Assembly: GCF_045037415.1 (NCBI RefSeq) | Contig: NZ_CP173438.1 | From: Escherichia coli | GTDB taxonomy: Bacteria; Pseudomonadota; Gammaproteobacteria; Enterobacterales; Enterobacteriaceae | DNA length: 64,000 nt | Strand: one strand, 5' to 3' | In this document: piece by piece, positions 27,569 through 36,224 of the stretch | Numbering within the stretch: position 1 is the stretch's first letter | How the letters are laid out: every line of letters starts with the position of its first letter | Translations under genes and position numbers: made by a program | Notes under the pieces: generated by a model | Databases searched by the model: none | What the model saw: the letters and a program-made list of their open reading frames with translations, nothing else | What the model was told of the DNA's origin: nothing

Positions 27569-28254
27569 ATGTCGTTACTTGCACAACTGGATCAAAAAAT
27601 CGCTGCTAACGGTGGCCTGATTGTCTCCTGCCAGCCGGTTCCGGACAGCCCGCTCGATAAACCCGAAATCGTCGCTGCCATGGCATTAGCGGCAGAGCAG
27701 GCGGGCGCGGTTGCCATTCGTATTGAAGGTGTGGCAAATCTGCAAGCCACGCGTGCGGTGGTGAGCGTGCCGATTATTGGGATTGTGAAGCGCGATCTGG
27801 AGGATTCTCCGGTACGCATCACGGCCTATATTGAAGATGTTGATGCGCTGGCGCAGGCGGGCGCGGACATTATCGCCATTGACGGCACTGACCGACCGCG
27901 TCCGGTGCCTGTTGAAACGCTGCTGGCACGTATTCACCATCACGGTTTACTGGCGATGACCGACTGCTCAACGCCGGAAGACGGCCTGGCATGCCAAAAG
28001 CTGGGAGCCGAAATTATTGGCACTACGCTTTCTGGCTATACCACGCCTGAAACGCCAGAAGAGCCGGATCTGGCGCTGGTGAAAACGTTGAGTGACGCCG
28101 GATGCCGGGTGATTGCCGAAGGGCGTTACAACACGCCTGCTCAGGCGGCGGATGCGATGCGCCACGGCGCGTGGGCGGTGACGGTCGGTTCTGCCATTAC
28201 GCGTCTTGAACACATTTGTCAGTGGTACAACACAGCGATGAAAAAGGCGGTGCT

Positions 28255-28258
<4 letters not shown>
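27569..28258 (+). CDS. nanE: N-acetylmannosamine-6-phosphate 2-epimerase
   Basis: ORF-track frame 27527..28258; start chosen at ATG 27569 ([23 protein letters not shown]), 229 aa. Confidence 0.93.
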
Positions 28259-29591
<1,333 letters not shown>

Positions 29592-29617
29592 AATTTAGTT
29601 GGATAGCTCGTTTTATA

Positions 29618-29644
29618 AATTCGCCAGACACTGTCTGGCGAATT
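29618..29644. other. Perfect inverted repeat (12-bp arms, 3-nt loop) at the yhcH/gltD convergent junction; possible bidirectional terminator hairpin
   Basis: aattcgccagac-act-gtctggcgaatt; contains GAATTC; no strong U-tract on either side. Confidence 0.5.
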
Positions 29645-29658
29645 CATTGTTACCTCGC

Positions 29659-31089
<1,431 letters not shown>

Positions 31090-34000
31090 TTACTGCGCCT
31101 GCACGCGCAACTCTGCTGCGCTACGACTACGGTGACCCAGCAGTGCTTTTACATCACTGGACTTCGGTTTAACCAGCGCAAATTTAGTGGCGAAGGTTGA
31201 CCAGTTCGCCAGAATCTCTTCACCACGCTGGGAACCGGTATGCTGAACATGCTCGGTGATAAGACCACGCAGATGCTCTTCATGGATCGCCAGATCGTCA
31301 ACGCTTAAGACCTCGACCAGCTCCGGGTTAACGCGTTTGCGGAAATCGCCGCTTTCATCGAGAACGTAAGCGAAGCCGCCAGTCATGCCCGCGCCGAAGT
31401 TAACGCCGGTTTTACCCAGAATACAGACGATACCACCCGTCATATATTCACAGCCGTTGTCGCCAATGCCTTCTACCACGGTGATAGCACCGGAGTTACG
31501 CACGCCGAAACGTTCACCCGCGCGGCCTGCGGCATACAGACGACCACCGGTCGCGCCATACAGGCAGGTGTTGCCGATAATGCTCGCTTCATGGCTGCGG
31601 AAGGCGGAACCAACCGGAGGACGAATGGCGATTAAGCCGCCCGCCATGCCTTTACCAACATAGTCGTTGGCATCACCGGTCAGGTACAGTTCCACGCCGC
31701 CCGCGTTCCACACGCCGAAGCTCTGGCCTGCAGTGCCGTTGAAGTACGCTTTGATAGGATCGGCTGCCAGCCCCTGATCGCCGTGCGTCTGGGCGATATA
31801 GCCTGAAAGCGACGCGCCGACAGAACGGTCGGTGTTGCGGATATCGAACCAGAAGGTTTTGCTCTGGCGTTCATCGACAAACGGTTTTGCCTGTTGCAGC
31901 AACTGCGCGTTCAGCAGGCCGTTATCAAACGGCGGGTTGTTTTCGGTGCAGTAGAGCGCTTTACCAGGATGCGGCTCGGCAGTCTCCAGCAGCTTCGACA
32001 GTGCCAGTTTCTGCTGTTTGGCGGTGAAACCGTCCAGCTCTTTCAGCAGGTCGGTGCGACCAATCAGATCCACCAGACGCGTTACCCCCAGCTGTGCCAT
32101 CAGCTCGCGGGTTTCACGGGCGATAAACTCAAAGTAATTAGTCACTTTGAACGGCAGGCCGTGATAGTGATTCTTACGCAGTTTGTCATCCTGAGTTGCT
32201 ACACCCGTGGCGCAGTTGTTCAGGTGGCAAATTCGCAGATATTTACAGCCAAGCGCTACCATCGGGCCAGTGCCGAAGCCAAAACTTTCCGCGCCAAGAA
32301 TCGCCGCTTTGATGATATCGACACCCGTTTTCAGGCCGCCATCGACCTGCAAACGGATCTTGTGACGCAAGCCGTTGGCAACCAGCGCCTGTTGGGTTTC
32401 AACAAGCCCCAGCTCCCACGGACAGCCTGCGTATTTCACCGATGAAAGCGGACTTGCGCCGGTGCCGCCGTCATAGCCTGCGATGGTGATTAAATCGGCA
32501 TAAGCTTTTGCCACGCCAGTCGCGATGGTGCCTACGCCCGGTTCGGAAACCAGCTTCACGGAGATCATCGCTTTTGGATTGACCTGCTTGAGGTCGAAAA
32601 TCAGCTGCGCTAAATCCTCAATAGAGTAGATATCGTGGTGCGGCGGCGGGGAGATCAGCGTCACGCCCGGCACCGAATAGCGCAGTTTGGCAATGTAAGG
32701 AGTGACTTTATCACCCGGTAACTGACCACCTTCACCCGGCTTCGCGCCCTGGGCGACTTTTATCTGAATGACGTCGGCATTGACCAGATACGCCGGAGTA
32801 ACCCCAAAGCGACCGGACGCTACCTGCTTGATGCGCGACACTTTGTTAGTGCCATAGCGCGCCGGGTCTTCACCGCCTTCGCCGGAGTTTGAGTTACCGC
32901 CGATGCTGTTCATCGCTTCCGCCAGCGCCTCGTGGGCTTCCGGGCTTAACGCACCGATAGACATCGCGGCGGTATCGAAGCGTTTAAACAGTTCGCTTGC
33001 CGGTTCAACATCAGCAATGTTGACCGCGTTTTCACCCGGCGTAATTGCCAGCAGATCGCGTAGCGTGGTTGCCGGACGCTCATTAACCAGCTTCGCGTAT
33101 TCCTGATAGTCGCTATACTCGCCGCTCTGTACCGCCTGTTGCAGCGTGCGCACCACGTCCGGGTTGTAGGCGTGGTATTCGCCACCGTGTACATATTTCA
33201 GCAGGCCGCCCTGGCTGATAGGCTTACGCGCCAGCCAGGCTCGTTTCGACAGATTCAGCAGATCCTGCTGGAAGTCTTCAAAGCTCGCCCCCCCAATGCG
33301 GCTAACTGCCCCCTGGAAGCACAGGCCCACGACATCATCGTGCAGACCGACCGCTTCAAACAGTTTCGAGCAGCGGTAAGAGGCGATGGTGGAGATGCCC
33401 ATTTTGGACATGATTTTGTACAAGCCTTTGTTGATGCCGTTACGATAGTTGAGCATCACGGTACGATAATCTTTGGCAATCGCGTGGGTGTCTACCAGGC
33501 GGCCCAGCGTTTCATAGGCAAGGTATGGATAAATAGCCGTCGCGCCGAAACCCAGCAACACGGCGAAGTGGTGCGGATCACGGGCGCTGGCGGTTTCTAC
33601 GATGATGTTGGCATCGCAACGCAGGCTTTGCTCGACCAGACGGGTCTGGATCGCGCCAACCGCCATCGGAGCCGGAACCGGCAGGCGATCTTTAGCGATA
33701 TTCCGGTCGGAGAGCACCAGCAGCACGGTGCCGCTACGTACCATTTTTTCGGCTTTGTCACACAGTTCTTTCACCGTCGCTTCGAGCGTGGTTTTAGTGA
33801 CGTCAAAGGTGATATCCAGCGTATCTGCGCGGTAGTGATCCTCTTTCATCGTCGTGAGCTGTTTGAAATCGGAATAGAGCAGAATCGGCGATTTAAAGCT
33901 TAAACGGTGCGCCTGGCCTTCTGCTTCACAGAAGACGTTCATTTCACGACCGATACTGGTGGCGAGCGACATAACATGCGCTTCGCGCAGCGGGTCGATT

Positions 34001-35643
34001 GGCGGGTTGGTTACCTGAGCAAACTGCTGGCGGAAGTAGTCGTAAATAATGCGCGGCTGGCTGGAGAGCACGGCGAATGGGGTATCGTCGCCCATCGAAC
34101 CGACCGCTTCCTGACCGTTTTCACCCAGTACGCGGATCACCGAATCCAGCTCTTCCGCGCTGTAGTTAAATTGTTTCTGGTAGCTGGCAAGCGTGTCGTC
34201 GTCCAGTTCGCGGCTACCCACTTCTTCATCGGGCAGATCTTCAAACGGTACCAGACGGCGGACGTTTTTCTCCATCCACTCTTTATAAGGGTGGCGGCTT
34301 TTCAGATCGTCATCGGTTTCTGCCGAGTGCAGAATACGCCCACTGCGGGTGTCGATAACCATCAGTTCGCCTGGCCCCACGCGGCCTTTTTCGACCACTT
34401 CGTCAGGCTGATAATCCCAGATACCGACTTCAGAGGCGCAGGTAATGAGCTTATCTTTGGTGATGACGTAGCGCGCCGGACGCAGACCGTTACGGTCGAG
34501 GTTACAGGCGGCAAAACGACCGTCAGACATCACGATGCCTGCCGGGCCATCCCACGGCTCCATATGCATGGAGTTAAAGTCAAAGAAGGCACGCAGTTCC
34601 GGGTCCATATCCGGGTTGTTCTGCCAGGCAGGTGGCACTAACAGACGCATGGCACGGATGATATCCATCCCACCTGCCAGCAGGAGTTCCAGCATGTTAT
34701 CCATCGAACTGGAGTCAGAGCCGGTTTCGTTGACGAACGGCGCGGCGTCGTGCAGGTCAGGGATCAGCGGCGTCTGGAATTTATAGGTACGCGCACGCGC
34801 CCATTGGCGGTTACCAGTGATGGTGTTGATTTCACCGTTATGCGCGAGGTAGCGGAACGGCTGCGCCAGCGGCCAGCGCGGTACGGTGTTAGTGGAAAAG
34901 CGCTGGTGAAACAGGCAGATGGCCGATTCCAGACGCAGGTCCGCGAGGTCCAGGTAGAAGCGCGGCAGATCCGCCGGCATACACAGACCTTTATAAATAT
35001 TGACCAGATTCGACAGGCTACAGACGTAGAAGTCTTTGTCGGCTTCGAGACGCTTTTCAATGCGGCGGCGGGCGATAAACAGACGGCGCTCCATATCGCG
35101 CGGACGCCAGCCTGCCGGGGCGTTCACAAAAATTTGCTCAATGCGTGGCAGAGAGGAGAGGGCGATTTCACCCAGCACGCCTTCGTTAGTGGGGACATCA
35201 CGCCAGCCCACAATCGACAACGTTTCGCGTTGCAGCTCTTCTTCAACGATGCGGCGTGCGGCAGCGGCGAGTTCAGGATCTTTATTCAGGAAGAGCATCC
35301 CGACGGCGTAGTTTTTTGCTAAACGCCAGCCGCGCTCCTGCGCAACGATGCGAAAAAAACGATCCGGTTTTTGTAACAGCAAGCCGCAACCGTCACCGGT
35401 TTTACCATCGGCGAGAATCGCGCCACGGTGCTGCATGCGGGCCAGTGCGTGTATTGCAGTACGCACTACCTTGTGGCTAGGTTCGCCTTCTATGTGGGCG
35501 ATCAGGCCGAAACCACAGTTATCCCTCTCAAGGGATTTATCGTACAACATATCGTGAACCTCCCCCAGGCTCTGCGGGAACCCCACTTCCGAACCGCTGC
35601 GCACGGGCACAGTAAGAGCGTGGCGACGGGGTTTGCGTGTCAT
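31090..35643 (-). CDS. gltB: Glutamate synthase (NADPH) large subunit
   Basis: ORF-track frame 31090..35658; start chosen at ATG 35643 ([13 protein letters not shown]..., GAGGTG Shine-Dalgarno 7 nt upstream); the 35658 start is possible; 12 bp upstream of gltD. Confidence 0.93.
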
Positions 35644-36224
35644 ACGCGCACCTCGCATTCGCCCCCTTGTTGTCCTTTTCGCATCGGTTAATACGGTGAA
35701 GAGGGGATCTCAATTACTGCATAAATATGATGAGCAGGCTGCTCATCCAGAAAGCTTCCAGCGGATTTCCAACTTATCGGGAAAGCTGATACAGGTCAAA
35801 TGGCAAGCTTATTGGTACAGAAATGTGCTTTAGCGCAAAATTCTTTATTAATTGTATGAAATTAAAGTGGATTTTCTATTTAAGGCTAAAAGGGGTGTCG
35901 TTAGAGAAACAGCCAATTCCTGACTGTCATAAAGGCGTGTTAACCCTTATCCTGCCTTGAATTGATGAGAAAGCCAGCATTTTATACTGCCTTAATTGGT
36001 AATAACGTTTCATGCTACTGTTTTTGCCTAAAATCCATAAGAAGATAAAAAAATCTGACACAAGATAAGCAACAGTGATTTATGTGATTGTGCATGAAAT
36101 TTCGGTAATTTTGATTGGTTATGCAGTTGATAAAAGCAGGCTGGGACGATTGATCCAGGTCATCGCCGAATTGGGCTAAAAATGGCAGGCTTTGGCCTCT
36201 TTTCAAGGCGCGGTCTATCAGATT

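Follow-up and report, generated by a model that had tools for sequence, protein, structure and literature searches.

A palindrome between gltD and nanQ of Escherichia coli, its relatives in yhcG and other DUF1016 genes, and the alleles of the site

The gltD–nanQ junction and its alleles in E. coli

In E. coli K-12 the glutamate synthase genes and the nan operon are separated by gltF, fimbrial genes and yhcG, whereas in the window, the whole 64,000-nucleotide stretch of E. coli DNA analysed here, the two gene ends meet directly with a perfect palindrome between them. The last gene of the nanATEK-yhcH operon, nanQ (yhcH), was called as an open reading frame at 29127..29591 on the plus strand with its TAA stop at 29589-29591, and the identical region is named nanQ (N-acetylneuraminate anomerase) in RefSeq genomes. 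On the minus strand, gltD (glutamate synthase small subunit) occupies 29659..31077 with the stop codon at 29659-29661, both by ORF call and by the annotation of identical sequence. The large-subunit gene gltB was placed at 31090..35658 on the same strand by a mechanical ORF call; the start annotated in RefSeq relatives would give it 4,461 nt. By these ORF coordinates, the convergent spacer from the nanQ stop to the gltD stop spans 29592..29658, the 67 bp that an earlier sequence-only reading had counted. The inverted repeat described there was located at 29618..29644 (27 bp), with 12-bp arms at 29618-29629 and 29633-29644 and a 3-nt loop at 29630-29632. Its sequence is AATTCGCCAGAC-ACT-GTCTGGCGAATT with GAATTC at 29640-29645, and a repeat finder extended the arms to 16 nt at 94% complementarity.

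The two flanks of the palindrome have different relatives. The gltD-proximal flank (29645..29658, minus strand) is 14 nt long, reads GCGAGGTAACAATG in gltD orientation and is common to the window, K-12 and Escherichia sp. MOD1-EC7003 but absent from the alleles that carry yhcG alone. The nanQ-proximal flank (29592..29617, plus strand) is 26 nt long, and its homologue in other E. coli is the stretch that separates nanQ from hairpin B, the hairpin after yhcG; the window has a long form with 8 extra nt, as does strain HH97. At the joint, the 34-bp FRT core found no match with up to 3 mismatches, in agreement with the earlier view that there is no FRT-like scar. A tRNA/integrase-type insertion site was also considered and rejected, as 28000-31500 contains no tRNA gene and the ORF list of the window has no recombinase at the joint. 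The comparison with MG1655 showed that the K-12 gene order given in the sequence-only reading, gltD-gltF-yhcA-yhcD-yhcE(IS5)-yhcF-yhcG-yhcH, was correct.

Of 5,426 complete E. coli genomes, 946-947 have the window-type joint at an identity of at least 95%. An 851-bp query spanning the joint reached a coverage of at least 80%, at a single place, in 947 of these genomes, and a 107-bp query, counting strong matches only, found 947 genomes with full coverage in 946 and all at least 95% identical. These genomes come from human, animal and water sources and include O25:H4, S88 and APEC O1:K1:H7 records, types that we take to be ST131/B2; many genomes with this joint match the window at 100% identity over a 24-kb flank. 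The same joint occurs in MOD1-EC7003, a GTDB species representative from a cryptic clade, whose gltD and nanEKQ are only 93-94% identical to those of the window. Because a clade 6-7% divergent has it too, the empty allele is either old or has been spread by recombination. A laboratory deletion, other engineering or an assembly artefact, for which nothing speaks beyond the clean look of the joint, has a negligible probability given the same joint in 946-947 independent genomes and in the cryptic clade and the lack of an FRT site.

The site is multi-allelic in E. coli, and three main configurations account for most genomes. In the empty allele of the window (about 17% of genomes), the order is gltD, 14 nt, hairpin, 26 nt, nanQ. 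The second allele (about 58%), seen in E. coli 042 and many others, has yhcG alone between the two genes in the order gltD, a different GC hairpin, yhcG, hairpin B, nanQ; its gltD-yhcG joint was covered in 3,141 genomes (~58%), which makes it the commonest allele. The same joint query gave a further 1,142 best matches at 80-90% identity, and in the listed examples of this band the match is confined to the yhcG-proximal part, as would be predicted from the divergent upstream region of K-12-type yhcG. The K-12 type (about 20%) has the order gltD, 14 nt, hairpin B', gltF-yhcADEF, yhcG, hairpin B, nanQ, and its whole segment (gltF-yhcADEF-yhcG) was covered to at least 80% in only 1,099 genomes (~20%). 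The remaining genomes have IS insertions or truncations at the site. In the literature, gltF-yhcADEF is a beta-class chaperone-usher locus found in phylogroup A strains only (PMC5216030).

The window therefore carries a natural gltD|nanQ allele, one typical of the B2/ST131 lineage. The sequence-only reading had proposed the presence/absence polymorphism of one accessory fimbrial islet; the polymorphism is natural as proposed, but the block consists of two modules and not of a single islet. The same reading had regarded the junction as worth attention unless it proved common across E. coli, and with 946-947 of 5,426 genomes carrying it the junction is common and, by that measure, unremarkable. 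As stated, the direct gltD-yhcH junction is already known and ordinary. The historical 'gltBDF operon' of K-12 represents a minority configuration in E. coli. The parts of wider interest are only the origin of the hairpin and the conserved palindrome of DUF1016 genes to which it leads.

Palindromic units inside yhcG and the DUF1016 family

In K-12, two hairpins related to that of the window were found. Hairpin B' (MG1655 3360631-3360656) lies 14 nt after the gltD stop and reads AATTCGCCAGAC TGT GTCTGGCGAAT. Hairpin B lies between the stops of yhcG and nanQ, reads AATTCTGCAGAC AGT GTCTGCAGAAT and is a diverged copy of B', the two differing by two compensated pair changes. A degenerate pattern for the window hairpin had a single match in the 64-kb window, where 0.00 were expected, and the palindrome is thus no product of chance. 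Among complete E. coli genomes the unit was found at this locus only, with a median of 2 places, which correspond to one palindrome read on both strands; the K-12-type records listed gave 4 unit places. As the unit is confined to one locus per genome, a REP/BIME or another dispersed repeat was rejected.

Across genomes with the empty allele, the loop (29630-29632) was seen to vary on a fixed stem, being AGT in the window (gltD orientation) and TGT in EcN_Sk. SCU-116 and MS 110-3 match as though they had ACT, that of the window reverse-complemented, in the loop; a flipped loop could explain this. EcN_Sk, a Nissle derivative (L062), has a gltD annotated as a pseudogene with an internal stop.

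The closest relatives of the window hairpin lie inside a coding sequence. Within the yhcG frame, three in-frame units follow each other in tandem at about nt 298-405, repeating every 39 nt (L003:4426-4533 in E. coli 042; L001:9625-9732 in K-12). In 042, unit 1 reads GAAATTCGCCAGAC AGT GTCTGGCGAATT, unit 2 reads GGAATTCCGCAGAC ACC ATCTGCAGAATTCC, with a 3' arm that begins GTCTG in K-12, and unit 3 reads AAGATTTGGCAGAC GCT GTCTGCCAAATCTT. The window hairpin is identical at 27 of 27 positions to unit 1 of yhcG from E. coli 042, L008 and EcWJ. In a nucleotide comparison of the yhcG locus with the window, unit 1 of 042 was also the sole strong match (27/27); a weaker one, 30 nt at 87% in the hairpin-B region, overlapped the same hairpin. 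Furthermore, the window unit aligned without gaps and pairs at 12/12 positions. The hairpin in the window is surrounded by no yhcG/DUF1016 reading frame.

The number of units varies from 1 to 3 among yhcG orthologues, and hairpin B in each lineage resembles an internal unit of the same lineage. The Pfam DUF1016_N model aligned to YhcG residues 19-184 against 136 model positions, and the ~30 extra residues are consistent with two extra 13-residue repeats. YhcG, a DUF1016 / PD-(D/E)XK nuclease, matched the PADLOC candidate PDC-S02 with E = 1.7e-134, and it has no sequence relative with a solved structure in the PDB. Among 21 distinct units of the Escherichia group, 94% of cells pair, and at the three stem positions that vary the changes always affect both sides. 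The covariation score of this set was 0.198 compared with 0.060 ± 0.014 in shuffles, and 0 of 500 shuffles reached 0.198.

A palindrome at the same place was then found to be a feature of the wider family. The sample comprised five plasmid-borne DUF1016 genes with 34-62% amino acid identity to YhcG, from B. cepacia, Granulicella, Diaphorobacter, Methylobacter and a C. freundii plasmid, and 20 IMG/VR contigs with DUF1016 genes of 30-60% identity. In 24 of the 25 loci, the best or second-best 12+3+12 window of the locus was at the same codon site, at least 25 nt upstream of the L(S/P)W(S/T)H codons. Pairing of at least 11 of 12 positions was reached at this site in 16 loci, and these are the sole 16 such windows among 48,510 positions scanned. 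The stems themselves are diverse in sequence, as seen in GTCGTGAC, GCGAACGC, CTCGTATC and TCCGAGAC. With the best window at the site picked per locus and several of the viral loci being close relatives, 29 DUF1016 units showed pairing in 93.7% of cells against 69.9 ± 1.6% in shuffles, and windows slid off the site gave 25-41%. Ten of the 12 pairs change on both sides, and the covariation score was 0.602 against 0.150 ± 0.021 with 0 of 500 shuffles reaching 0.602, a signal to be read with the reservation that templated mutation of quasi-palindromes can mimic compensatory stem changes without selection. The stem mismatches were A.C/C.A in 16 cases, G.T/T.G in 7 and other types in 12, a spectrum that does not separate selection at the RNA level from selection at the DNA level.

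Rfam gave no match at E<=1 for 8 of the DUF1016 loci, and no description of the palindrome was found in the literature searched, which is not proof of its being undescribed. The gene neighbourhoods of some of these loci were also recorded. The Methylobacter plasmid (L067) has its DUF1016 gene between hsdM and hsdS, and in Granulicella (L065) and the C. freundii plasmid (L068) the gene is directly downstream of a tyrosine recombinase/integrase gene, with an overlap of 4 nt in C. freundii. DUF1016 genes are known to be enriched next to invertible genes (PMC9881135).

It is possible, though short of probable, that the window hairpin is the orphan of an apparently undescribed and deeply conserved cis element of DUF1016/YhcG (PDC-S02) genes, acting as an RNA hairpin or as a DNA hairpin/cruciform. 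As RNA it would control the expression of a potentially toxic nuclease, and as a DNA structure it would be recognised, or cut, at the base of the stem. Such action in cis would explain the joints found at unit edges in the gltD|nanQ locus. DUF1016/YhcG is a widespread and uncharacterised family of candidate defence nucleases, and the palindrome, if functional, would provide a direct experimental handle on the control or mobilisation of these genes and would also account for the recurrent rearrangements at this locus.

Joints at unit edges and the origin of the empty allele

The breakpoints between alleles were compared with the edges of the units. K-12 and the window split right after the stem, K-12 reading ...GGCGAAT|CAAATTAC and the window ...GGCGAATT|TATAAAACG, such that the window follows the gltD side of K-12 to the last stem base and then the nanQ side of K-12 with 8 extra nt. 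In the truncated yhcG of the EcWJ type, the 3' half of the gene is replaced directly after unit 3 (...GCCAAAT|TGAGAGG). E. albertii has a hybrid of unit 2 and hairpin B at the site. In HH97, whose flanking genes are not B2-like, a gltD-proximal hairpin and a decayed 5' part of yhcG reaching to unit 1 are followed by the window-type flank TATAAAACGAGCTATCCAACTAAGTTTTAA.

Two of these alleles deserve a further description. The replacement in EcWJ (L005:4400-5020) is about 470 bp long with a 101-aa ORF annotated as 'transposase', and 'DUF1016 N-terminal' annotations like that of EcWJ occur in many genomes, so this truncated yhcG is a common allele. The ORF has no Pfam or NCBIfam match; the label is unsupported, and a transposase as the agent of the rearrangement was rejected. 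The yhcG remnant of HH97 (L063:3020-3480) has many small deletions relative to 042 next to flanking genes annotated as intact, and these deletions could reflect real decay or a sequencing or assembly problem. HH97 is the only 'intermediate' allele found.

The site was also surveyed in outgroups through NanQ-anchored loci, with one genome per species. Direct gltD|nanQ abutment was found in Enterobacter, Lelliottia, Huaxiibacter, Siccibacter, Trabulsiella and some Citrobacter, where the spacer has a GC-rich stem that is mostly followed by a T-run. The yhcG gene is present at the site in E. whittamii, two other Escherichia lineages, Pseudocitrobacter vendiensis, C. amalonaticus and C. gillenii, and remnants of it are present in E. 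albertii and Salmonella arizonae/diarizonae. In Citrobacter werkmanii, codB-codA for a cytosine permease and deaminase occupy the site (L013:6527-9071). The cargo of the gltD|nanQ site thus changes from genus to genus. Inserts of comparable size and ORF arrangement were noted in Salmonella arizonae (L027:6594-9138) and in related Citrobacter loci.

In Pseudocitrobacter faecalis the site is without yhcG and has a unit-3-like hairpin, and the ~45 nt behind it share homology with the K-12 sequence downstream of B' (local alignment score 51-61, shuffle maximum 24). Correspondingly, the first ~45 nt after B' in K-12 (CAAATTACTGACGAAGTGCGCGTTGTTTTC..., L001:2158-2200) were matched in Pseudocitrobacter L020/L024, which are without yhcG or fimbrial genes.

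From these comparisons, the window allele is likely to be the scar of a loss of yhcG, that is, a secondary loss and not a virgin site, the direction of the change being inferred. This reading follows from the home of the palindrome being the DUF1016 gene and from the presence of yhcG or its remnant at the site in the deepest Escherichia branches. Across phyla, DUF1016 genes carry the palindrome as an intrinsic part of their sequence, and its extragenic copies are therefore taken as derived. The gene would have been lost through deletions with joints at palindrome edges, leaving one unit behind. The 14-nt flank GCGAGGTAACAATG had no convincing similarity, by eye or by blastn-short, to yhcG or its upstream region.

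The opposite direction was also weighed, in which the window represents the ancestral and never occupied site, the K-12 block or yhcG was inserted beside an existing hairpin, and the units of yhcG are copies of that hairpin. Direct abutment around a single hairpin is widespread in the other genera listed above, the divergent clade of MOD1-EC7003 has the empty allele too, and the K-12 islet starts exactly after the hairpin; the first two of these observations count against the scar of yhcG loss as well. However, the terminators of the other genera are GC-rich with a T-run and unrelated to this palindrome, which is found at the same DUF1016 codon site in Burkholderia, Granulicella, Diaphorobacter, Citrobacter plasmids and prophage contigs. 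With yhcG at the site in E. whittamii, its remnant in E. albertii, and HH97 as a plausible intermediate, an ancestral empty site appears unlikely.

The positions of the joints raise another explanation, namely that recombination or cleavage actively takes place at the palindrome, which would be extruded as a hairpin or cruciform and cut at its base, possibly by the PD-(D/E)XK nuclease YhcG or by a partner recombinase, the window then holding an empty, attachment-like site. The fimbrial islet, the replaced yhcG 3' half and codBA-like cargo would in that case have been exchanged at the 3' edge of the palindrome. Several independent joints do fall on the last base of a unit, the copy number of units ranges from 1 to 3 with hairpin B resembling the internal unit of its own lineage, and DUF1016 genes often adjoin integrase genes besides being enriched next to invertible genes (PMC9881135). 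On the other hand, no recombinase is encoded at the locus in the window, short palindromes are prone to deletion without any dedicated enzyme, and the codBA inserts inspected in Citrobacter and Salmonella are not flanked by the unit. We regard such a site as quite improbable.

The hairpin at the end of gltBD and its likeness to known elements

The hairpin may have a role at the convergent gene ends. The 12-bp stem stands 14 nt after the gltD stop and 26 nt after the nanQ stop, and the spacer RNA folded at -19.1 kcal/mol on the plus strand (z = -3.4) and at -23.1 kcal/mol on the minus strand (z = -5.6). A consensus scan of 29000-30200 found no terminator made of a stem and a T-run on either strand, and a U-rich tract (at least 5 U in 8) after the stem is absent from both tails, UAUAAAAC in the gltD transcript and CAUUGUUA in the nan transcript. 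The scan bears out the earlier remark that neither strand has a clear U-tract, and a canonical intrinsic terminator was rejected on its result. No family of Rfam 15 covers the hairpin at E<=10. In a comparison of the window with MOD1-EC7003, 27/27 hairpin positions are conserved, whereas 7 of the remaining 40 positions of the spacer differ (p about 0.02, from a hand count and hand calculation on one pairwise alignment).

Published 3'-end mapping in K-12 bears on this role. In the M63 0.4 sheet of a Term-seq study, a 'primary' 3' end of gltD is listed at MG1655 3360660(+) with an average read count of 956 and with the region string AGTTTAAGCGAGGTAACAATGAATTCGCCAGACTGTGTCTGGCGAATCAAATTACTGACGA, covering 50 nt upstream and 10 nt downstream (PMC7815308, supplementary file 1). 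When this string was placed on the sequence, 3360660 was found 4 nt past the last paired base of hairpin B'. The Rho table of Adams et al, 2021 puts a termination region further downstream, inside gltF (PMC7815308). Mapping of 3' ends had been put forward as the way to see whether the hairpin ends both the gltBD and the nan transcripts. For gltD the K-12 data agree, with an end 4 nt after the same stem, whereas for nanQ the tables have no 3' end under yhcH or at the candidate coordinate 3368968, presumably because the operon is repressed without sialic acid. The K-12 gltD end could also come from processing and not from termination.

Two other K-12 ends in the same data fall in sequence that is absent from the window allele. 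An 'orphan' 3' end lies at MG1655 3360783(+), 123 nt past B' (PMC7815308), and a very abundant 3' end at MG1655 3367641(-), between yhcF and yhcG, belongs to the ncRNA G0-10703 (PMC7815308). This ncRNA is antisense to the 5' region of yhcG (PMC7967276).

Since the stem and its distance from gltD are those of K-12, where the end has been mapped, the hairpin probably sets the 3' end of the gltBD mRNA in the window strain by analogy, and it may also end the nan operon mRNA from the other side. Without a U-tract it would act through weak termination or by blocking 3' exonucleases after Rho-dependent termination further downstream. The K-12 gltBD message already ends at this hairpin, and the same stem is found at the end of gltBD in B2 strains. 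Taken as a whole, the account that we favour with fair assurance is a natural B2 allele that is the scar of yhcG loss, in which the surviving unit would have become the stem-loop setting the 3' end of the gltBD mRNA.

The junction and its hairpin can be set beside several known systems. The yhc chaperone-usher locus gltF-yhcADEF forms the main part of the K-12 block, is variable among strains and is missing from the window; its absence is the majority state but does not by itself yield the window junction, as most strains without it keep yhcG. Hairpin B' of K-12 shares with the window hairpin the 14-nt spacer and the stem AATTCGCCAGAC/GTCTGGCGAAT, and differs from it in the loop (TGT compared with AGT) and in being followed by gltF-yhcADEF-yhcG where the window has the nanQ-proximal flank. 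The gltD|nanQ terminators of other Enterobacteriaceae, which are intrinsic and often bidirectional, have the same position and likewise form a single stable hairpin between the two stops, but they consist of a GC-rich stem and a T-run, as in GCCGGATGG...CCATCCGGCTTTTTTT, whereas the window hairpin is unrelated in sequence and has no T-run. With REP/BIME elements it shares being a short extragenic palindrome at convergent gene ends, although it is not dispersed, and the REP-like GCCGGATG elements at this site in Citrobacter and Pseudocitrobacter differ from it in sequence. Its closest likeness is to the yhcG/DUF1016_N unit (PF17761 + PF06250; PADLOC PDC-S02), with which it has in common the 12-bp arms, the 3-nt loop, the AATT outer ends and the manner in which the stems covary; unlike the in-frame units of yhcG, the window unit is extragenic and solitary, orphaned in the same way as hairpins B and B' of K-12.
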